From Rhodobacter capsulatus SB 1003 (GTDB lineage Bacteria > Pseudomonadota > Alphaproteobacteria > Rhodobacterales > Rhodobacteraceae), in NCBI RefSeq assembly GCF_000021865.1, contig NC_014035.1, forward strand, positions 1 through 32,000: 32,000 nucleotides of DNA. Direction: 5' to 3'. The notes beneath the pieces are model-generated. The model was not told where the DNA came from and ran no database searches. It saw only the letters and a list, made by a program, of their open reading frames with translations. Positions 7,066 through 23,123 of the stretch are shown piece after piece (within the stretch, counting starts at the first letter, position 1; each line of letters begins with the position of its first letter). The translations under genes and the position numbers were made by a program.

Positions 7066-8115
7066 TCAGCAGGCGGAATCCGTCGCGGCCGCACCGCCTC
7101 CGGGCGGCGCCACCGATCCGCGCCGGATCAGCCGGGTGGGAAGCTGAACATGGCGCGGCGGCTCGGTGCTGCCGCGCATGCGCTCAAGCAGCATCCGGAC
7201 CGCCAGCGGACCGATCTGCGCGACCGGCTGCGCGACAACCGTGATCTGCGGCTCGGTGAAGGTCGCCAGATCGAAATCGTCAAACCCCACCAGCGAGACA
7301 TCGCGCGGCACCGACAGACCAAGCGCGCGCAGGCCCAAAAGCGCCCCCTTGGTCATCAGGCTGTCGAGGGTGAACAGCGCGGTGGGCGGATCGGGTTGGC
7401 GGAAGAGCCGGATCGTTGCCTCGGTCGCCTGCGCGACAGTGGATTGCGCCACCGCGATCAGCCGCGCATCAAGCGCGATCCCGTGATCGGCCAGCGCCCC
7501 CGCATAGCCCGCCAGTCGGTCCCGCGCGGTCACGATCCGCTGATCGTCGTGGATCACCGCCACCCGACGATGTCCGGCCGCGATCAGGCAGCCGACCGCC
7601 GCCCGCGCGCCGCCCGCATTGTCGACCGAGACACAGTCGCAAGGCAGACCCTCCACCGCGCGGTCGATCAGCACCAGCGGCACGCCCTCGTGCAAGAGCG
7701 CCTCCAGATGCGGGCGGGTCGGACTTGCGGCGGGGGCGACGATCACCCCCCGCACGTTCAGCGCGCGGAAGCTTTCGATCAGGTCGCGCTCCTGCGCGAC
7801 GCTTTCGGCGCTGCTGGCGATCAGCAGGCTTTGACGGCTCTGGCGCAGCTGCGCGTCGATGTCATGGGCGATCTGCGCGAAGAAGGGGTTTTGAATGTCC
7901 CCGGGCACGAAGCCCACAAGCGGCAATTGCCCGCCCCGCAGCGCCTGGGCGACGCGGTTGCCGCGATAGCCCAGCTGGGCCGCGATTTCGATCACCCGCT
8001 CGGCCGTCGCGGCGCCGACATAGCCATAGCCGTTGAGCGCCCGCGCCGCCGCCGCCCGCGACACGTTTGCGGCAGCGGCGATATCCTTGAGCGTCACGGT
8101 TTTTCTGGGGGCCAT
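7066..8115 (-). CDS. LacI family transcriptional regulator
   Basis: 349 aa. N-terminal HTH is VTLKDIAAAANVSRAAAARALNGYGYV and the body is periplasmic-binding-protein-like. Confidence 0.9.
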   Translation of the reverse strand: MAPRKTVTLKDIAAAANVSRAAAARALNGYGYVGAATAERVIEIAAQLGYRGNRVAQALRGGQLPLVGFVPGDIQNPFFAQIAHDIDAQLRQSRQSLLIASSAESVAQERDLIESFRALNVRGVIVAPAASPTRPHLEALLHEGVPLVLIDRAVEGLPCDCVSVDNAGGARAAVGCLIAAGHRRVAVIHDDQRIVTARDRLAGYAGALADHGIALDARLIAVAQSTVAQATEATIRLFRQPDPPTALFTLDSLMTKGALLGLRALGLSVPRDVSLVGFDDFDLATFTEPQITVVAQPVAQIGPLAVRMLLERMRGSTEPPRHVQLPTRLIRRGSVAPPGGGAAATDSAC

Positions 8116-8502: not shown

Positions 8503-9528
8503 TCAGCCTGCGGCGCGGCGCAGAAACGCGACGATCCGGGCGGGAACTTCGGGGGCCAATGTCTGCGGGATGCGGGCGTAATTTTGCGGATCGCCGGTCG
8601 GATCTGCTTGGAACAAATGGTTCAGACCCGCCATGACGTCGACCTGCATCCCAGCTGTCCGGGCCAGATCGCGCAGGGCGGCGGCGTTCTCGGTCGCATC
8701 GACCTGGGTGTCGCTGCCGCCGTAAAGCGCCAGAACCGGACCGTCAAACGCCCCGATCAGGGCCAGCGGATCGGGGCGGGCGGCATCAAACCCCCAAGGC
8801 GTGGCCAGAACGGCGGCATAGGTCCTGCGCACCTCGGGCGGCAACGGGGCCAGCGCGGCCGTGAGCCGGGGGCGGGCCGCGGCAAGGTCGGGCGCCGCGC
8901 GCAGGGCGGCAAAGCTGGCCGCAAGCGCCTCATCAAGCGCCGCGATCCGGTCCGCGGGGGCGCCTTGCAGCGCGGCGATGGCGCGGGTCTGATGGCGCAG
9001 CACCTGTTCCATCGGCACTGCGGGACCGGCCAGAAGCACCAAAGCCGCCACCTTGCGCCCGCGCGCGGCAAGGGGCGCGGTCAGCCCGCCTTCGGAATGG
9101 CCAAGGATCGCGATGCGCGCCGGGTCGATCTCGGGCCTTGCAGCAAGGGCGTCGAAGGCCGCCCCGGCGTCACGGGCGAAATCCGAAATCGTGGCGGTGG
9201 CGAAATCGCCGGCGCTTCCGCCCACCCCGCGTTTGTCATAACGCAGGCTGGCAATCCCCGCCCGGGCCAGCGCATCTGACAGCACGAGGAAGGGCCGATG
9301 CCCCGCCACATGCTCGTCGCGGTCCTGCGGCCCCGAGCCCGCCAGCAACAGCACGGCGGGAAAGGGACCGGGGCCTGCGGGCAGCACCAGGTCACCCGCC
9401 AGCACGCCTGCAGGTCCAGCGATGTGCAGGCTGCGATGCGGATCGGGGCGGAAGCGGGGATCTTGCGGCCGCAGGCAGGCCATCAGCGGCAAGACGCCCA
9501 GAAGGACAAGAAAGGAACGACGGGTCAT
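8503..9528 (-). CDS. Alpha/beta hydrolase, probable lipoprotein
   Basis: Start taken at MTRRSFLVLLGVLPLMAC (lipobox-like LMAC). Nucleophile elbow ILGHSEGG. The 9529-9867 part of the track ORF is probably not coding. Confidence 0.8.
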   Translation of the reverse strand: MTRRSFLVLLGVLPLMACLRPQDPRFRPDPHRSLHIAGPAGVLAGDLVLPAGPGPFPAVLLLAGSGPQDRDEHVAGHRPFLVLSDALARAGIASLRYDKRGVGGSAGDFATATISDFARDAGAAFDALAARPEIDPARIAILGHSEGGLTAPLAARGRKVAALVLLAGPAVPMEQVLRHQTRAIAALQGAPADRIAALDEALAASFAALRAAPDLAAARPRLTAALAPLPPEVRRTYAAVLATPWGFDAARPDPLALIGAFDGPVLALYGGSDTQVDATENAAALRDLARTAGMQVDVMAGLNHLFQADPTGDPQNYARIPQTLAPEVPARIVAFLRRAAG

Positions 9529-9557
9529 GAAAGCCTCCGGGGTTTTGCCCGGATCTC

Positions 9558-10676
9558 TCAGCCTTGCGCGCCCTTTGCGACCGGGCCGATGGGGCCGGAC
9601 GCCCGCCAGGCACTGGGCGTCATGCCCGTGCGCTTGAGAAACGCCGCATTGAAGGTGGATTTGGCGTTGAACCCTGTGGCATGGGCGATGTCGAGCACGG
9701 TGTGATCGGTCGCGCGCAACAGCGCCTGTGCCTCGCTCACCCGCCAGCCGTTGACGTAGTCGTAAAAGCTTTCGGCCCGCCCCTGATTGAGCGCCTGACT
9801 GACGTAGAAGGGCTTCGCCCGGGCGGCCTCGGCCAGATCGGCCAGCGAGAGGCCCGGGGCACGCCACAGGCTGTCGCGCCGCATCGCCGCGTCGATCCGG
9901 GTCAAAAGCTGCGCCATCGCCTCGGGATCAAGCCCCGAACGGGCGTAGCTTGGCGGCGCCGCAGGAACCTCGGTGGCGGCGATCACCGCATCGGCCCAGT
10001 CGGGCCAGTGCATCTTCAAGGTCAGCCCGTGCAGCGCCGTCCCAAGGATCAGCGCGAACAGGAACAGGTCCGAGAGCGGCCCGATCAGCACCCGCCCGAG
10101 CGACAGAAGGTCCAGAAGCTGGATCGCGAACAGCGCGACAAGACAGGCGCCCAGCAGGGCAACACCGCTGAGCCGGGGCGTGGGCGGCGCGGCGATGATC
10201 TGCGCCAACGCCTTGGCGTGACGGCGCAGCGCGCGCAGGATGCCGATCCCGGCCAGAGCCGTTCCAAGGCAAAGGGCGAGCCAGTAAAGCCCGACCCCGG
10301 CCAGAGCCGCCAGCAGCCAGCCCGGTGCAAGCGTCGGCACCTGTCCCGCCTCGATCGCGGCGCGGGCCGCGGCGGGCAACAGAAGGAAAGGCAGACACAG
10401 ACCTCCGCTTGCCGCCAGCGCGGCCTCGATCCGTGGCCAGCGTGCAGGCCCCGCCAAGCTGCGGACGTGTTGGGCAAGGAGGATCGGCAACAGCGGCAGA
10501 ACCAGCACCTGCCAATCCTCCCAGGGGCCGCCGTCAAGCCCCAGAAACACCGCCAGCCCCAGCGCAAAAAGCGCAAGACATCCCACAGCCGGGGTCAGCC
10601 GCGCATCTGCGCCACGCCCCCGCAACCAGATAGCCAGCGCAGCCATCGCCGCCATTCCCGCGAAAATTCCCGCCAT
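9558..10676 (-). CDS. AraC family transcriptional regulator with a multi-TM N-terminal domain
   Basis: Start taken at MAGIFAGMAAMAALAIWL. About 250 aa of hydrophobic helices are followed by the AraC HTH (VLDIAHATGFNAKSTFNAAFLKRTGMTPSAWRA). Confidence 0.8.
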   Translation of the reverse strand: MAGIFAGMAAMAALAIWLRGRGADARLTPAVGCLALFALGLAVFLGLDGGPWEDWQVLVLPLLPILLAQHVRSLAGPARWPRIEAALAASGGLCLPFLLLPAAARAAIEAGQVPTLAPGWLLAALAGVGLYWLALCLGTALAGIGILRALRRHAKALAQIIAAPPTPRLSGVALLGACLVALFAIQLLDLLSLGRVLIGPLSDLFLFALILGTALHGLTLKMHWPDWADAVIAATEVPAAPPSYARSGLDPEAMAQLLTRIDAAMRRDSLWRAPGLSLADLAEAARAKPFYVSQALNQGRAESFYDYVNGWRVSEAQALLRATDHTVLDIAHATGFNAKSTFNAAFLKRTGMTPSAWRASGPIGPVAKGAQG

Positions 10677-10812
10677 CCGTTCCCCCGCGCCAAGGCAGAA
10701 TGCGGGGAAGTCGGACCGGGTGCAAGCGCGGCCCGGCGTCCGGCCCCTTTGGATCGGTCGCCCTGCGCGCCGGATCCGCCGAAGATCGCGGCACATCCAG
10801 CCCGGAGGTCCC

Positions 10813-11595
10813 ATGACAGCCCTTTTTCGCGCCCCCCTGCTTCACGCAGCGCTTCTTGTGCCGCTGCTTTTCGCCTGTGCCCCGCCCGGGCCCGAAGTCA
10901 CCCATGCCAAAGGCCCGACGGTGATCTTCGAAGCGGGCCTTGGCGATACTGCCACCGTCTGGGACCGCGTCGACATGCCCCCCGGCCTTGGGCGATTTGC
11001 CTGGACACGGGCGGGATATGGGCTCGGCGCCGATCTGGTCGCCGGTCAATCCTGGCCAGGCGATGCCGATGGCCGCCGCACCGGGGCCGAGGTGACAGCC
11101 CAGCTGGAGGCGGCCCTGACCCGGGTGCAGGCAAGGCCGCCCTATATCCTTGTCGGCCATTCGCTCGGCGCGCTTTACGTGCTTGATTTCGCCCGCAGCC
11201 ATCCCGATCAGGTCAAGGGCATCGTCCTTGTCGATCCGCGCCTGCCGGGGTTCACCGCGCGCTGCAAGGCCGAGCAGCTGCGCGGCTGCGAAATCCCGCC
11301 GCTGTTGCGCCTGACGCTTACGAATGTCGAGCGGCTCGAGTTGGGCGGGGTTCCCGAGACCGAGACGGCGCTGCGCGACCTTGGCGCCCTGCGCGACATT
11401 CCGCTGACGATCCTTTTGGCCGAAAAGGCAGGTCTTGGCGAGGATCCGCGCTGGCGCGGGGTCTGGGCCGCGCATGCCGAGGCTTTTGCCTCGGATTTCC
11501 GCCAGACCAGTGTGATCCCGGTTGCAAGCGGCCATTACATCCAGACCTCTGCCCCCGAGCAAGTCACGGCCGCCATCGCGGCGGTTGGAAGATAG
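10813..11595 (+). CDS. Alpha/beta hydrolase, probable lipoprotein
   Basis: Start taken at MTALFRAPLLHAALLVPLLFAC. Nucleophile elbow LVGHSLGALY. Divergent from the AraC gene. Confidence 0.8.
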   Translation: MTALFRAPLLHAALLVPLLFACAPPGPEVTHAKGPTVIFEAGLGDTATVWDRVDMPPGLGRFAWTRAGYGLGADLVAGQSWPGDADGRRTGAEVTAQLEAALTRVQARPPYILVGHSLGALYVLDFARSHPDQVKGIVLVDPRLPGFTARCKAEQLRGCEIPPLLRLTLTNVERLELGGVPETETALRDLGALRDIPLTILLAEKAGLGEDPRWRGVWAAHAEAFASDFRQTSVIPVASGHYIQTSAPEQVTAAIAAVGR

Positions 11596-11846
11596 CATCG
11601 CCGGACCGGAAGCGCGGAGTGATATTCGTCCGGACTTCGGCCGCTGAATGGTACAGGTGACAGGCTGTTTGGTGAGGAGCCGGGCGATGGGAGGCAACCG
11701 CAGTCAAAGTCGAAATTGAATCCCGATCTGCCCGCAAGGCGAGTTATAAAAGCGGGTTCTCACCATGGAAAAATGACTGCTTTGCGGAAGAGGGCATTGG
11801 CAAATGCCTGAGCTACTCCCCGATCCTTGGACAGGTTTCCGGGTGA

Positions 11847-12229
11847 TTTAAGCTACAGGCCCCCGAAATCCGCACCACCAAAGGCGCGGGCACCAAGATC
11901 ACCAACTTCAGCCTCGCCACCTCGCGCCCCCGCCTCTCGGAAGGTCGCGTCCTGCGCGACGAGAATGGCTACCGGATCATGGACACGGAATGGCACCGCA
12001 TCACCTGCTTCAACGGTCTCGGCAAGACGGTCGCGGAGCATTGCGAAAAGGGCATGAAGGTCCTCGTCCACGGCCGCATCCACTACATCAAGTGGACCGA
12101 CAGCATGGGGAACGACCGCTACAGCTGCGAGATCATCGCCGAGAAGGTCGACTTGCCTCAAGCCGCCCGAAAGCGGCCGAGAACGAAAACCCCGAGTTCA
12201 TCGATCGCGACGACGAGATCCCGTTCTGA
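11847..12229 (+). pseudogene. ssb: Single-stranded DNA-binding protein, 5'-truncated and frameshifted
   Basis: The OB-fold part (APEIRTTKGAGTKITNFSLATS ... TEWHRITCFNGLGKTVAEHCEKGMKVLVHGRIHYIKWTD) opens right after a stop at 11844-11846 and lacks the first ~15 codons. The acidic tail (EFIDRDDEIPF stop) is in another frame, with the shift near 12150-12160. Confidence 0.8.
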
Positions 12230-12301
12230 GAACGGGGTCTCCCCCTCGGGCCCGGCGGGGAAACCCGCCGGGTTCGCGGCATTAGTTTTTTAGTTGCCAA
12301 T

Positions 12302-12613
12302 TCACTGCTCCGGGTGGAAGGCGACGAGGACATCGCCATTCAAGAGCAGCTTTCGTCCTGGAAAGGACTCGAAGAAGGCAAGCATGGCCTCTCGGGCCTG
12401 CACGGTATGGTCTTTCGAGTGTCGTGTGAAACATTCGCTCTTGAAGCCCTCTCCAACACCATACTCGGCCATGATTTCCAGATGGAACGGCCCCAGGTCG
12501 TCACTTGCGCTCCAAGCCTCCCAGACGTCACCGGCACTCCTCGCTGCTGCGTCCAGTCGCTGCATGAGGTCAGGTAGGTCTAGATCGGAATAGGCGTTGT
12601 AAAATATCGCCAT
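12302..12613 (-). CDS. Small acidic hypothetical protein (orphan immunity-like)
   Basis: 103 aa from MAIFYNAYSDLDLPDLMQRLD. Lower GC by eye. No TM segment or signal peptide. Last gene of the minus-strand cassette. Confidence 0.55.
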   Translation of the reverse strand: MAIFYNAYSDLDLPDLMQRLDAAARSAGDVWEAWSASDDLGPFHLEIMAEYGVGEGFKSECFTRHSKDHTVQAREAMLAFFESFPGRKLLLNGDVLVAFHPEQ

Positions 12614-12674
12614 CGAAATCACCGTATGATGCCGTCCCAGACCTTGGTTTTTCTTTATCCGGTGGGAACACCGG

Positions 12675-13019
12675 TCACCCCTTGGACGGTGGCACCTCTG
12701 CCCACACCAGGTATTGGTATTCCCCGCCCTCGCTCGACGCGCGGCGCACGATGTCGCGGATATTCGCGGCAGATCGCTGTGGATCGAGAAATATCTGCCA
12801 TTCTTCCTCGTAGCCCGGGCCCGCGTTTGCCAGGAAATCGTACTCGAAGGTGCGCCCGGTTCGACTGCCGCCCTGAACTCTGACGACCTCCAGTCGCGCA
12901 ACGCTGTAGCCCCGGGATGCCATATATTCGTTGAACTCGAGCATTACGCTCGACGGCTCAACATACACGAATTTGCCAGCTTCGAGTTGCTCCAGCATCT
13001 TTTCAAACTCGTCGCGCAT
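12675..13019 (-). CDS. Small hypothetical protein (immunity-like), coupled to the upstream ORF
   Basis: ATG 13017-13019 is preceded by GGAG and lies 2 nt after the upstream stop (an alternative GTG at 13025 overlaps it). Product MRDEFEKMLEQLEAGKFVYVE..., 114 aa. Confidence 0.6.
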   Translation of the reverse strand: MRDEFEKMLEQLEAGKFVYVEPSSVMLEFNEYMASRGYSVARLEVVRVQGGSRTGRTFEYDFLANAGPGYEEEWQIFLDPQRSAANIRDIVRRASSEGGEYQYLVWAEVPPSKG

Positions 13020-13021
13020 GT

Positions 13022-13726
13022 TCACTCCAATGGCCTGATGATCGGGTCTGGTTCATTTTCCGTTTCCCAAAGGGGGCGGTTCCGATTGCTTACAGCGACG
13101 ACGCGCCCCTCCGGGCTCAAAAGAACCCAATACCCATCCTGACCGGTCAACAAGGTCATCTCCTGGCCCTTGTATCGACCACGTCCGGCGACGATTCCGC
13201 TAAGATCGGGCCGGGGATTGGCGATGATTTCATCGATTTGCCCGGCAGTGTGCCCTTTTCCTGTGACGTATTCCAGCCCGTCGCCCTTGCCGCCGTGGTC
13301 GTCAATCGTATTCCCGCCAGGGGTGGTGAACGCCTCATCCCGACGTGCCTCGACAATGTTCGGCCCCGCTTCATCCGGGATCGGCGTGGAGATGATGTTA
13401 CCGTCAGGATCCTCGACGGGCAGCGAACCCGTGTGGTTCGGCAGACCAAGGGTCTCGGCCGGATAGGTTTCCAGCCACTGGTCGATGCGTTCCGGCGTGA
13501 AGCCGGGAAGTTCACCCAACCGGCGCTCGCCGCCAGTGAGTTCCGGGAAAACCTTGACCCAACCTTGGGCAATTGTGCCGTGCTGCCGCCGCAACCGGCT
13601 TTCCGCGAATGCGTTGTAGGCTTGCTGCACGAAGTCTCCGAGGGCAAGTTGGGCGGCAGGATCCCCTTCGACGATCCTCGAGGCCCGGGACATCCTTGGC
13701 CGATACCTCAGCCAGAACCCGGTCAT
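13022..13726 (-). CDS. Hypothetical protein resembling an orphan polymorphic-toxin C-terminal module
   Basis: 234 aa with no signal peptide or TM segment. A P/G/T/E-rich linker (ELPGFTPERIDQWLETYPAETLGLPNHTGSLPVEDPDGNIISTPIPDEAGP) precedes a compact C-terminal domain (LEYVTGKGHTAGQIDEIIANP ... GYWVLLSPEGRVVAVSNRN). The start is uncertain (ATG 13726 or 13693). I cannot assign a family. Confidence 0.5.
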   Translation of the reverse strand: MTGFWLRYRPRMSRASRIVEGDPAAQLALGDFVQQAYNAFAESRLRRQHGTIAQGWVKVFPELTGGERRLGELPGFTPERIDQWLETYPAETLGLPNHTGSLPVEDPDGNIISTPIPDEAGPNIVEARRDEAFTTPGGNTIDDHGGKGDGLEYVTGKGHTAGQIDEIIANPRPDLSGIVAGRGRYKGQEMTLLTGQDGYWVLLSPEGRVVAVSNRNRPLWETENEPDPIIRPLE

Positions 13727-13766
13727 CGGCAGCTGGCAAGCGCTGCTCGACTATTGCGCGCTCACC
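13668..13766 (+). pseudogene. radC: Short RadC/JAB-family fragment
   Basis: The frame reads STILEARDILGRYLSQNPVIGSWQALLDYCALT. This matches the conserved segment (..V.SSW.AL.DYC..) just upstream of the RadC JAB domain. There is no start codon and no JAB domain. It lies antisense to the 5' end of the 13022-13726 ORF. Confidence 0.45.
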
Positions 13767-13770
13767 CGCC

Positions 13771-14425
13771 CACACCGTTTCCCAGACCGCCCATGCGCTC
13801 GAAGAGCTGCAGCTCTACGGCTACCGCCCCTTCGACGAACCCGATCCGCGCCCGATGCCCGATGCGCAGCGCCTTGCGGTTGCCGTCGCCGACATCTTCG
13901 ACGCCCTCGTCGCCACTCTCGAGGACACCCGCATGGAACCCGACCTCGAAGAGGTGCTCTGGGGCCAGGTCAACCTCTTCCACCGCGCCACCGCCCGGAT
14001 CGAGCGGTCGCTTGACGAGAACGAGCAGGCGCAGCGCCGCCTTCAGCGCGAGCAAGACGGCTCCGAGGTGAAGTCGACCGAACTCGAGCGCCTGACGGCG
14101 GAAGGCCTGACCCCCATCGAGCGGCGCAACTGCATGGACATGATGCGCGATCACGCCGCGACCGAATTCTCTCATCACACGGGATCGACCTGGCGGCCCC
14201 GCCCCGGCTCGATGGTGAACCGCCGGCACATGACCGCAGCGCTGATCGACAGCCGCGATTTCCTGGCCGCCAAGCGCCGCGCGGAAACCGAGGTGATGCT
14301 GCCCGTGGGCCCCAAGGTTGCCCTCACCGGCGGGACCGATTTCAACGATCACCACCTGATCTGGGGCAAGCTCGATCAGGTCCGGACCAAGCATCCCGAC
14401 ATGGTGCTTCTGCACGGGGGCAGCC
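13771..14425 (+). pseudogene. Conserved ICE/plasmid protein with a C-terminal DUF2493 (SLOG-like) domain, truncated at both ends
   Basis: SQTAHALEELQLYGYRPFDEPDPRP ... LTGGTDFNDHHLIWGKLDQVRTKHPDMVLLHGGSP matches, from memory, a protein common on alphaproteobacterial conjugative elements. No credible start codon. Similarity ends right after LHGGSP, where a foreign fragment begins. Confidence 0.65.
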
Positions 14426-14427
14426 CC

Positions 14428-14712
14428 GCCGCGGCCTGCAGCGCCTCTTCATGCGGGGGGGCGGTGCCAAGCCCGGCATTGGCGCGGCCGTCGGTCATCA
14501 CGATGACCAGCGGCAGGACATTCGGGTCCCTGCGCTGAACCTGACGCAGCACATTGGCCGCTTCGCCAAGCCCCTGGGTCAGCGGCGTGCGGCCGCCCAC
14601 CTCGAGCTCGGCCAGCAGCCGTGCCGCGCGATCGACCGAGCCGGTCGGCGGCAGCACCACTTCGGCGCTGCGGTGCCGAAACACCACCATCGCCACCTTG
14701 TCGCGCTTTTGA
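14428..14712 (-). pseudogene. VWA-domain fragment (Mg-/Co-chelatase BchD/ChlD/CobT-like)
   Basis: YQKRDKVAMVVFRHRSAEVVLPPTGSVDRAARLLAELEVGGRTPLTQGLGEAANVL ... LVIVMTDGRANAGLG is the central part of a chelatase-type VWA domain. Both ends are missing. Confidence 0.65.
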
Positions 14713-15456
14713 TATCCGCATTCGGCCGGGCTGGAACAGATCGACCTGATCCTGACCGATCCCTACCTGCGCCCCGAAGACCCGCGCCTGCTGATCGAAC
14801 GTCCCTTCGAGATGCCCGAAACCTGGGTCAGCCTGTCGCGGATGTTTGCGCCCCATGAGATTGCCGAACGCACGCCGCAGTCTCGCAAGGGGCATCTGAC
14901 CTTTGGCACTGCGAACAACCCCTATAAATACACGCCCGCCTGTCTGGATGCCTGGGCTGCGGTGCTGCGCACTGTCCTCGGATCGCGCTTCGTTTTCCTG
15001 CGCCCCGAAGGCGGCGTCGAGAGTTTCCGCGCCAATGCCCGCGCGGCATTCGCGCGCCGCGATGTCGACCCCGACCGGCTTGATTTCATCGGCGTGCGTG
15101 GCGATCACATGCGCCATTACAACGAGATCGACATTGCCCTTGATACCCTGCCGCATGTCGGTGGCACGACGACCTGCGAGGCGCTCTGGATGGGGGTGCC
15201 GACTGTCAGCCTGATCGGCCCGGGCTTTGCCGAACGGCTGAGCTGTTCGAACCTGTCGAATGCGGGGCTTGGCGATCTGGCCGTGCGCTCGGTCGCCGAT
15301 TATGTCGCCAAGGCGGCGGAACTGGCTGCCGATCCGGCGCGCCGTGCGGCGCTGCGGGCCGGTGCGCGGGCGCAGATCGCGGCCAATCCGCTTGGCCAGC
15401 CCGCGCGGTTCACGAAGAACTTCTATGACCTTGCGCGAAAGGTGGCCAGCCAATGA
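14713..15456 (+). pseudogene. GT41-like (SPY/O-GlcNAc-transferase-type) glycosyltransferase, C-terminal part only
   Basis: The frame opens after a stop at 14710-14712 with YPHSAGLEQIDLILTDPYL, followed by TFGTANNPYKYTP ... IALDTLPHVGGTTTCEALWMGVPTV. The TPR and N-terminal catalytic lobe are absent. The first ATG is at 14812. The stop overlaps the rfbF start (ATGA). Confidence 0.7.
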
Positions 15457-16223
15457 AAGCCGTGATCCTTGCGGGGGGACGTGGAACGCGGCTTTCCGAA
15501 GAAACCGGGCGGCGGCCGAAACCGATGGTGGACATCGGCGGGCAGCCGATCCTGTGGCACATCCTGAAGATCTATGCCGCGCATGGGGTGAACGAGTTCG
15601 TGCTCTGCCTTGGCTATCGCGGCTGGCAGATCAAGGACTACTTCCTGAACTCCGCGCGGCTCTCGTCGGATCTGACGGTCGATCTCGCCTCGGGCGTCGT
15701 CGAGATGCTGCGCCCGGCGTCCGAGCCGTGGAAGATCCATCTGATCGACACTGGCGAAGACACCCAGACCGGCGGGCGGCTGAAACGGGTGGGGCATCTT
15801 CTGCGTGACGACGATGCCTTTTGCCTGACCTATGGCGACGGTCTCGGCGATGTCCATATCACCGCCGCGATCGCTTTTCACCGCGCCCATGGCAAGGCTG
15901 CGACCGTGACGGCGGTAGTGCCGCCGGGCCGCTTCGGCGCGCTCGACCGGCAAGGCGACCGGGTTTCGGCCTTTGTCGAAAAGCCCGCAGGCGATGGCGG
16001 CACGATCAACGGCGGCTTTTTCGTGCTGTCGCCGTCGGTACTTGACCGGATCGAAGGCGATGCGACGGTCTTTGAACAGGAGCTGCTCAAGGGCCTTGCG
16101 CGCGATGGCGAATTGCGCGCCTTTGACCATCGCGGTTTCTGGCAACCGATGGACACGCTGCGCGACCGCGACCATCTGCAGGCACTTTGGGACGGGGGGG
16201 CGGCACCGTGGAAGATCTGGTAA
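15453..16223 (+). CDS. rfbF: Glucose-1-phosphate cytidylyltransferase
   Basis: 256 aa. MKAVILAGGRGTRLSEETGRRPKPMVDIGGQPILWHILKIYAAHGVNEFVLCLGYRG is the characteristic RfbF N-terminus. Appears full length. Confidence 0.9.
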   Translation: MKAVILAGGRGTRLSEETGRRPKPMVDIGGQPILWHILKIYAAHGVNEFVLCLGYRGWQIKDYFLNSARLSSDLTVDLASGVVEMLRPASEPWKIHLIDTGEDTQTGGRLKRVGHLLRDDDAFCLTYGDGLGDVHITAAIAFHRAHGKAATVTAVVPPGRFGALDRQGDRVSAFVEKPAGDGGTINGGFFVLSPSVLDRIEGDATVFEQELLKGLARDGELRAFDHRGFWQPMDTLRDRDHLQALWDGGAAPWKIW

Positions 16224-20985: not shown

Positions 20986-21620
20986 TCATAGATCAATCCC
21001 TTCCGACAGCGTCAGCGCATCCTCCAGATCGACCCCCAGATATCGAACTGTGCTGTCCATCTTGGGTCGTGGCCCAGAAGCAGCTGCACGGCGCGAAGAT
21101 TTCCGGTCTTCTTGGTGATCTGCGCAACTTTCGTGCGCCGCATCGAATGCGTGCCATAGGCACTGGGCTCGAGCCCGATCGAAAGAACCCAGTCGCGCAG
21201 GGTCCGGGCATATTGGCGCGTCGAGAGGTGCGGGCTGGCGTGAACGCGGCTGGGCCAGAGATAGTCGTTGCCGATCATCTCGGGATCCTTGATCCACCGT
21301 TCAAGAGCCAGGCGCGTGATCTCGGTGATCTCGAAGCGGACGGGTTTTCGGGTTTTGCTCTGGGTCACCGAGGCACGTTCCTTGACGTGACCGGCGGCAT
21401 AGATGTCATTCACCCTGAGGCCGACCAGATCGCAGCCCCTGAGTTTGCTATCGACGGTCCTGTTGAACAGGGCGAGGTCGCGCCGATTGTCGGCCATTTC
21501 CAATCGCAAGCAGATGGACCAGACGTGTTTTGGCTGCAGCGGAAGCTTTTGGCCGACGATGCGGCCCTTGTTCCACGGCGCGTGGGTCGGGCGAAGAGCG
21601 GGCAAGGTTTCAATGGCCAT
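20986..21620 (-). pseudogene. Small tyrosine recombinase/integrase, frameshifted near the C-terminus
   Basis: MAIETLPALRPTHAPWNKG ... YGTHSMRRTKVAQITKKTGNLRAVQLLLGH is in one frame. The expected continuation KMDSTVRYLGVDLEDALTLSEGIDL, carrying the catalytic Tyr, is in another. The shift is at about 21062-21072. Confidence 0.8.
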
Positions 21621-21951
21621 GACGGTACTCCCCTCCACCACGCCCGCCACATCCTCGGCTCCGCCGATCCGGAAGTGTAGCACCGATCCATCCGTCGTTT
21701 CGATCGATCGAGTGGGCGGGGAGCGGCTTGTGAGGGCGCGGCATCGTCCCGCGGCAATCGGCGATAGCGGCCGTTCGCGAGGTGGCTCGGGGAACGGCGC
21801 ACTGCGCAGAGAACAGGCATGGCGCGCGGGACGGCACGCTTGGCGCGGCTGACGTGGGGCGCCTCAAAGCTGCCTTTCAACTGCGATCCGGCATTGGCCC
21901 GCACCTCAGTTCCGAACCTCGGCGAGGGTCTTTTCCACGGCCTTCCCGAGA

Positions 21952-22740: not shown

Positions 22741-22874
22741 TCGCGTTCTGACCTGACGCAGCCCGACCCCGGCCGAGGGAAGGATGACCTCGCGAGGCGG
22801 CCGATCTCGGAAACGGTTCAGACGACAGACCGATGCTGCTGTCGCCGAGGCAACCCGTTCCGGCAAGCGGCGAC

Positions 22875-23123
22875 ATGGAGAAACTGGCCCACGCGCTCGA
22901 CCGGTTGGGGGTCGCCTATTCCTGGCACAAGGTCGTGCCCTTCGTTGGCGATCTGATCCCCGAGCCTGAGGTGCGCAACCCGGGCTACGCGCCCGCCTAT
23001 GTCATGGATATCTGCAGCACCGAGACCGGCTTGAAACTTCTGGAAACGAATTGCATCAATGCCGCCGGGTTCTATGCGGCCGATGTGATGAAGCTGGCGG
23101 CGGCGATCGACGCGCTTGGCTGA
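22875..23123 (+). pseudogene. R2K-clade ATP-grasp (DUF4343-like) remnant with a large in-frame internal deletion
   Basis: An N-terminal piece (MEKLAHALDRLGVAYSWHKVVPFVGDLIPEPEV) is joined directly to the C-terminal piece (YAPAYVMDICSTETGLKLLETNCINAAGFYAADVMKLAAAIDAL). The ATP-grasp core between them is missing. Confidence 0.6.

Follow-up and report, generated by a model that had tools for sequence, protein, structure and literature searches.

What do three consecutive, minus-strand open reading frames (ORFs) of 234, 114 and 103 amino acids (aa) encode at positions 12302-13726 of contig NC_014035.1 of Rhodobacter capsulatus SB 1003, and are they of any use to the cell? They lie within the window, the whole stretch of 32,000 nucleotides (nt) analysed here (positions 1 to 32,000 of that contig). 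A first-pass annotation, made from the letters alone, had described the block as a displaced C-terminal module of a polymorphic toxin with a coupled immunity gene, and this description was upheld by at least six alternative tips within one toxin family, by the presence of the same tip on Rhs proteins, and by strict pairing of tip and immunity gene (25/25). Very probably, the cassette is a truncated MuF toxin with a colicin-E5-like tip, followed by its cognate immunity gene and an orphan one, and functional as immunity. On this view, what were three hypothetical proteins would turn into the dead stump of a toxin, the antidote to it and one antidote to spare. The features on which this reading is built are the following.

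13022-13726, minus strand: 234-aa ORF with an ATG start; 13022-13674 alone represents ancestral toxin sequence.
13346-13674, minus strand: conserved pre-toxin region, aa 18-127, ending with the demarcation motif NIISTPIPDEAGPNIV.
13025-13345, minus strand: toxin tip, aa 128-234, divergent colicin-E5-like and a predicted ribonuclease (RNase); stop codon at 13022-13024.
12675-13019, minus strand: putative cognate immunity gene, 114 aa, intact; fold model nearest to the colicin E5 immunity protein (ImmE5).
12302-12613, minus strand: putative orphan immunity gene, 103 aa, intact, PF28203 (CDI_Immunity_Comp).
13674/13675: deletion junction, equivalent to position 8086 of locus L013 joined to 10605.

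All three ORFs were real genes, because database homologues numbered 111 for the 234-aa, 25 for the 114-aa and 39 for the 103-aa product, and because the ratio of nonsynonymous to synonymous substitution rates (dN/dS) was 0.07-0.31 for all four segments compared with their nearest relatives. Direct reading of the sequence bore out the layout first proposed, with three ORFs of 234, 114 and 103 aa on the minus strand: the toxin TGA (13024-13022) was followed by 2 nt and the ATG at 13019, with a GGAG 5 nt before this ATG. The second ORF was listed as 116 aa from a GTG (12675-13025), whereas its homologues all had the start that corresponds to the ATG at 13019, and its length is therefore taken as 114 aa. 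The 103-aa ORF was nested inside a 199-aa ORF starting with TTG.

Comparison with full-length relatives (numbered with L for loci and P for proteins) showed that the 234-aa ORF retains the last 218 codons, at the 3' end, of a polymorphic toxin gene of the Rhodobacterales, whose ~540-aa product belongs to the MuF family. Residues 321-538 of the full-length orthologue P0176 (538 aa) aligned with aa 17-234 of the window ORF, and P0176 matched the PHROG category 'head morphogenesis' at 4.9e-27. Full-length orthologues carried Phage_Mu_F (PF04233) at 43-50 bits, for a cut-off of 29.6. As read from the genomic loci of relatives, the complete protein was ~540 aa long, started with MQHSFSDFLRHGG..., and consisted in order of an N-terminal region, the Phage_Mu_F core, a helical linker, the pre-toxin region and a variable tip. 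The segment corresponding to aa ~17-127 of the window ORF was common to the 111 homologues, with complete divergence right after the motif ...NIISTPIPDEAGPNIV. In the full-length relatives the pre-toxin region was likewise strongly conserved and ended with ...STPIPDEAGPNIV before the variable tip. Invariant alignment columns marked it as the best-conserved stretch of the whole family, and it was covered by no Pfam model; what had been taken for a P/G/T/E-rich linker is instead this most conserved pre-toxin region. At least six unrelated tips were counted after GPNIV, namely the E5-like tip, CdiA_C (PF18451, 66 bits), EndoU_bacteria (PF14436, 51 bits) and three without family. A MuF domain was not detected in the window ORF, because the deletion described below removed it, and the window copy is thus best read as a remnant of a MuF family member and not as a functional one. 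No full-length toxin copy was present in the window, and the sole R. capsulatus homologue retrieved was the truncated copy itself.

The point of truncation could be placed to the base. Collinear DNA homology to L013, L014 and L015 ran from 13674 downward, reaching 12008 in L014 and 11856 in L013, and broke precisely at 13674/13675. On the other side of the break, 13675-13766 (plus strand) read ...ILEARDILGRYLSQNPVIGSWQALLDYCALT and had 87-92% DNA identity to the 5' part of radC in L013 and L015; the radC ORF of L013 matched RadC (PF04002) at 1.6e-40. The gap between the two pieces in L013 was 2,518 bp, an interval taking in the beginning of radC, a DUF932-like gene (phrog_1362), the toxin upstream region and the first ~320 toxin codons. 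13674/13675 is thus a simple deletion junction, and what the toxin has lost there is its native promoter and start codon along with ~320 codons and the MuF domain. A conserved 80-nt upstream region with GGGAGG-N-ATG, present in 21 loci, was missing from the window. Over its initial 52 nt, the 234-aa ORF ran antisense to the radC piece, and the ATG at 13726 is therefore not ancestral. The first-pass annotation had suspected as much of the N-terminus from a radC overlap of ~60 nt, and that the N-terminus is not ancestral was confirmed to the base.

The nature of the tip is less easily settled, and on balance we lean towards a colicin-E5-like domain, a predicted RNase. A profile of the tip searched against 1.84 billion representative proteins gave 55 matches, in which the tip stood at the extreme C-terminus of Rhs proteins of 394-1697 aa, and also on MuF proteins; homologues bearing the same C-terminal domain on known delivery N-termini, for which a search had been proposed, were thus found. 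Rhs proteins are also among the carriers listed for Tox-ColE5 (Zhang et al., 2012; PMC3482391). The Pfam model Colicin_E5 was matched by 5/14 aligned family tips (best 1.2e-6), and two tips of MuF proteins scored above its cut-off (P0182 with 31 bits, P0208 with 26.5 bits). For one relative's tip, the top four PDB sequence matches were colicin E5, at E ~0.03. An hhalign comparison of the tip family with the RNase domain of E5, as encoded on a ColE5-type plasmid, gave P = 6e-4 over 64 columns with a probability of 28%. The alignment formed a graded series from the window tip via intermediates to the tRNase domain of colicin E5 (PF12106; PDB 2dfx, 2fhz), a domain of the BECR fold that cuts tRNA in the anticodon loop, with distant similarity running from a (K/R)G(H/W)T helix to the C-terminal strands ...G.WVVVND.TG.V.QV.D. 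The AlphaFold model of the tip (predicted local distance difference test, pLDDT, 88) comprised helices followed by a 4-stranded sheet, and its compatibility with the BECR fold was judged by eye only. Designed beta-trefoil repeats, the sole matches of the PDB profile search, were dismissed as spurious relatives.

Independent of the toxin side, the immunity side led to the same family. When all retrieved loci were surveyed by tblastn, the tip had a 114-aa homologue 5 nt behind it in 25/25 copies, with 35-95% identity. One of these was in Ruegeria pomeroyi DSS-3, where an IS630-type transposase interrupts the toxin. The 114-aa family had no relatives in Pfam or by PDB sequence profile search. The best PDB fold match of its AlphaFold model (pLDDT 90.5) was 2fhz_A (E = 0.011, prob 1.00, TM-scores 0.50/0.53), a chain that was confirmed as the colicin E5 immunity protein by a query with the immunity gene from a ColE5-type plasmid. 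The 114-aa protein, like ImmE5, is small and acidic. From its constant position and from the model, it is taken as the cognate immunity protein, with a predicted fold closest to that of ImmE5, and the evidence from the two sides agrees.

Several results weigh against this reading and were set beside the above. On the Pfam model Colicin_E5 the window tip itself scored 14.1 bits (E = 0.06), below the cut-off of 25. Foldseek of the tip model retrieved neither colicin E5 nor any RNase from PDB and BFVD; the best E-value in PDB was 0.57, and nothing in PDB and BFVD fell below E = 0.2. The tip family also has an invariant HG...KGH segment that is not in colicin E5, more fully an extra conserved HG.KG.G.EY segment together with a ...ENEPDPIIRPLE tail, both of which E5 lacks. 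H24, K37, H39 and R95, as numbered in the family alignment, are invariant. Because of the invariant segment, the chemistry and target of the tip may differ from those of colicin E5. On the immunity side, the E-value of 0.011 for the ImmE5 fold match was modest, and the 114-aa protein had no sequence similarity to ImmE5, hhalign of the two families giving no sequence support (probability 0.1). In addition, the dN/dS values were unable to distinguish the window lineage from its functional relatives, a sigma-70-like promoter scan of the cassette was negative, and a terminator scan was likewise unhelpful.

The empty Foldseek search would also fit a quite different account, in which the 234-aa product is a non-toxic structural or accessory fragment of a phage or mobile element and the small ORFs are unrelated accessory genes, as would the absence of any significant family in Pfam, NCBIfam and PHROG scans of the three window proteins. 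This account is extremely unlikely: known nucleases (EndoU and CdiA_C) occupy the identical position in paralogues, Rhs toxins end in the same tip, tip and immunity gene are strictly paired in all 25 copies, and the best fold match of the immunity protein is ImmE5.

The 103-aa gene pointed to a sister toxin. Nine loci (L007, L011, L012, L017, L020-L023 and L026) had a homologue of it whose start fell on the stop codon of a CdiA_C-tipped toxin, and PF28203 was listed for 22/39 homologues, the precomputed match of the window protein itself being weak; a PDB sequence profile search with the 103-aa family was empty. These positions suggest that the 103-aa gene is an immunity gene cognate to the CdiA_C (PF18451) tip of the sister toxin, and an orphan because the partner CdiA_C-tipped toxin is not in the window. 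The suspicion that it was an orphan immunity gene was thereby borne out, since its homologues belong to another tip of the same toxin family. Conservation of the small ORFs and their co-occurrence with homologues of the large one were likewise seen, for the 114-aa gene in 25/25 copies and for the 103-aa gene at the nine CdiA_C loci. The order E5-like tip, 114-aa gene, 103-aa gene was repeated after full-length toxins in L014 and L015 at 90% DNA identity, which argues that the cassette was inherited as a block. Multiple toxin stumps and immunity genes were arrayed in L007, L014, L023, L028 and L042. The families first called unrecognised could accordingly be named: MuF (PF04233) for delivery, a colicin-E5-like tip, and PF28203 for the second immunity gene.

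In L007, a 123-aa immunity-like ORF (556-927) ended with ...EPDPIIRPLQ, the conserved C-terminal tail of the E5-like tip, and it looks like a recombination scar of module exchange.

The history proposed for the truncated MuF toxin and its immunity genes starts from an ancestor that, judging from the relatives, would have resembled L013, L014 and L015, with a ~540-aa toxin, a cognate immunity gene and spare immunity genes, flanked by radC and DUF932-like genes on one side and by ssb on the other. The locus was then cut short by a 2.5-kb deletion at 13674/13675, which took away the promoter together with the start codon and ~320 codons from the beginning of the toxin gene, those of the MuF domain among them. 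The remaining stump would be neither packaged nor delivered, because the MuF domain, which defines the delivery route, is gone. If translated from a fortuitous GGAG-GTG at 13630, it would be neutralised in the cell by the 114-aa protein, which, by analogy with ImmE5, would bind to the RNase and block it. What still works would be the two immunity genes, which would protect against E5-like and CdiA_C-tipped toxins of related Rhodobacterales, and the ~330 nt of retained pre-toxin sequence might provide the homology for swapping tips by recombination with an incoming full-length copy. Intact immunity beside a dead toxin is the expected signature of selection for protection, not attack. As a whole, the cassette is a relic of conflict between bacteria, ordinary and of a known kind.

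The same start site raises the question of whether the stump and the 114-aa gene form a free-standing toxin-antitoxin addiction pair, serving replicon stability or abortive defence against phage. An open frame persists over the 218 ancestral codons, and the GTG at 13630, with a fortuitous GGAG 5 nt ahead, yields a 202-aa product that is annotated as a hypothetical protein in R. capsulatus. Translational coupling to the immunity gene is tight, the cassette lies on a ~133-kb replicon, and RNases of the BECR fold, RelE for example, are at work in toxin-antitoxin systems (PMC3482391). Yet the start codon and promoter are accidental products of the deletion, and the promoter scan was negative; the truncated form was not recurrent at other loci, where orphan copies were cut at different points; and the gene order is toxin first, with no sign of an unstable antitoxin. 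An addiction pair is therefore unlikely, and the first-pass annotation's alternative of a free-standing toxin-immunity pair was not supported.

Among known systems, the closest likeness to the truncated toxin and its immunity genes is with the MuF polymorphic toxins (Zhang et al., 2012, PMC3482391; Jamet et al., 2017, PMC5576092). The full-length orthologues have PF04233 on the N-terminal side, a variable C-terminal toxin and a small downstream immunity ORF, and the family combines a conserved N-terminal part with at least six alternative tips; in the window the 114-aa ORF follows 2 nt after the stop. The window copy differs in lacking the MuF domain, which is thought to place the toxin in the capsid (PMC3482391), and the Rhodobacterales genes do not adjoin a portal or terminase gene, whereas MuF toxins were found by Jamet et al. 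exclusively with temperate phages and mostly beside such genes (PMC5576092). The delivery routes given for Tox-ColE5 omit MuF, and its distribution omits the alpha-proteobacteria (Zhang et al., 2012; PMC3482391). A Rhodobacterales branch of MuF toxins is thus documented, with a new, strongly conserved pre-toxin region, and the colicin-E5-like tip on a MuF carrier is a pairing not listed in PMC3482391.

Orphan toxin/immunity modules are also known from CDI (contact-dependent growth inhibition) loci and from Rhs loci, as attributed to Poole et al. (2011) within Jamet et al. (PMC5576092). As in those modules, the 5'-truncated toxin in the window keeps the region upstream of the tip and an intact immunity gene, and extra immunity genes without a toxin stand alongside. 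The window copy, however, is not downstream of a full-length toxin gene, was made by a deletion in place that took neighbouring genes too, and sits among gene fragments. The resemblance of the second immunity gene to CdiA-CT/CdiI systems (PF18451/PF28203) lies in the PF28203 assignment of its family and its position directly after PF18451-tipped toxins, but its toxin partner is carried on MuF, not on CdiA, and is missing from the window.

Around the cassette, three further gene fragments were recognised.

13675-13766, plus strand: fragment of the 5' part of radC, 92 nt, truncated at both ends.
11856-12293, plus strand: ssb fragment, 5'-truncated and frameshifted.
13764-14427, plus strand: DUF2493/YAcAr gene fragment, aa 2-228 of 311, outside the toxin locus.

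Of all the genes in 11856-14427, the two immunity genes alone were intact. The gene normally found on the 3' side of the cassette was ssb, as in L013, L014, L049 and L051, and the first ~63 codons of the window ssb were gone. Its remnant ran in two frames (11979-12293 and 11990-12229, plus strand), with the part of the OB-fold in one and the acidic ...DRDDEIPF tail in the other. The block that had been judged A/T-richer by eye had a G+C (guanine plus cytosine) content of 0.57-0.60 over ~11400-13400, compared with 0.66-0.70 on either side, and it reached further left than the three-ORF cassette, into the ssb fragment. The low G+C content of this patch is accounted for by a decayed mobile fragment whose immunity genes alone were kept intact.

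The DUF2493 piece was 91-96% identical to more than 80 Rhodobacterales plasmids, with identity stopping at 14427, and 27/85 of the matching plasmids were typed as conjugative. Its ORF spanned 13764-14538 (plus strand) and matched a 311-aa plasmid protein over residues 2-228 only. On a Fuscovulum plasmid, an intact DUF2493 gene followed strawberry-notch and toprim genes. DUF2493 was considered as a part of the ancestral toxin locus and rejected, being missing from all related loci and matching plasmid backbones. A search of PLSDB gave no full match to the cassette region and matched the DUF2493 piece alone. The decayed conjugative element assumed by the first-pass annotation was therefore only partly substantiated: the ssb, radC and DUF2493 fragments and the conjugative-typed plasmids agreed with it, whereas scans of parts of the window turned up no transfer genes; from the ORFs scanned at 21-32 kb they gave an integrase fragment and iron-transport genes. 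Phage structural genes were also not found in the scanned parts of the window. The ancestral context of radC, DUF932-like and ssb genes could have come from a phage or an integrative and conjugative element.

Whether full-length relatives travel with phages was addressed in the 23 loci with long flanks, by crude ORF calling of ~4 genes on each side and with neighbours of at least 120 aa. Three of the 23 (L014, L019 and L033) were within a lambda-like prophage, placed between its head and its tail genes and read from the opposite strand, and four (L013, L015, L043 and L051) adjoined radC, DUF932-like and ssb genes. Around the other 16 (among L020-L046), no family of phage structural proteins came up repeatedly in the nearest neighbours; the neighbours identified were of housekeeping type, e.g., a TonB receptor, PaaX, ATP synthase and AMP-binding enzymes. 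In L028, a TniQ (transposon) gene adjoined the toxin. The majority of copies stood alone on the chromosome; strains with such solitary full-length genes include Sulfitobacter sp. JB4-11, Lutimaribacter pacificus DSM 29620 and Celeribacter baekdonensis DSM 27375. The mostly phage-gene-poor context of the Rhodobacterales MuF toxins is regarded as a lead, not a result, and such contexts bear on the delivery and purpose of MuF toxins, still an open question (PMC12226406).

In L014, the toxin-immunity array (9100-15475) lay on the opposite strand between DUF6441/capsid genes and the tail terminator, a position that is moron-like and not the usual portal-adjacent one of MuF toxins. The confirmed loci were all from Rhodobacterales, save two metagenome-assembled genomes (MAGs) that were probably mis-binned, L014 (Exiguobacterium profundum) and L011 (Burkholderiaceae). 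Their DNA was 84-90% identical to the window, L014 also holds a Rhodobacterales-type prophage, and the two taxonomic labels are probably binning errors.

The region of ~80 nt upstream of the toxin start was conserved across the 21 loci in every genomic context (e.g., L031:9561-9640 and L014:9561-9640). Its elements were CG.ACGGT, TT(T/A)ACC at ~-48, TA.AA at ~-25 and GGGAGG before the ATG. A CtrA box was considered and rejected, as the TTAAC half-site at -48 was present in 8/21 and the full TTAA-N7-TTAA only in L029.

Literature searches returned no report of MuF toxins in Rhodobacter or Rhodobacterales, nor of MuF toxins tied to gene transfer agents. Gene transfer agents are widespread in Rhodobacterales. 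It is conceivable, and at present very unlikely, that the MuF-headed toxins of this order are loaded into capsids encoded elsewhere, i.e., into gene transfer agent particles or those of a resident prophage. If this were true, the full-length family would not be a phage weapon of the usual type, and spare immunity genes such as those in the window would be a defence against toxins delivered by particles.

Further from the cassette, by ~7 kb, a short 223-aa ORF of the Phage_integrase family was found at 21012-21683 (minus strand). That mobile DNA has decayed here as well is suggested by a fragment of an ATP-grasp (R2K_3) gene, 96 aa long, at 22833-23123. At 12251-12272, where the ssb remnant and the 103-aa gene converge, an inverted repeat rich in G+C (cccggcggg ttt ccccgccggg) lies between the two; it went uncalled by the terminator scan because it has no T-run, and may be a bidirectional terminator.

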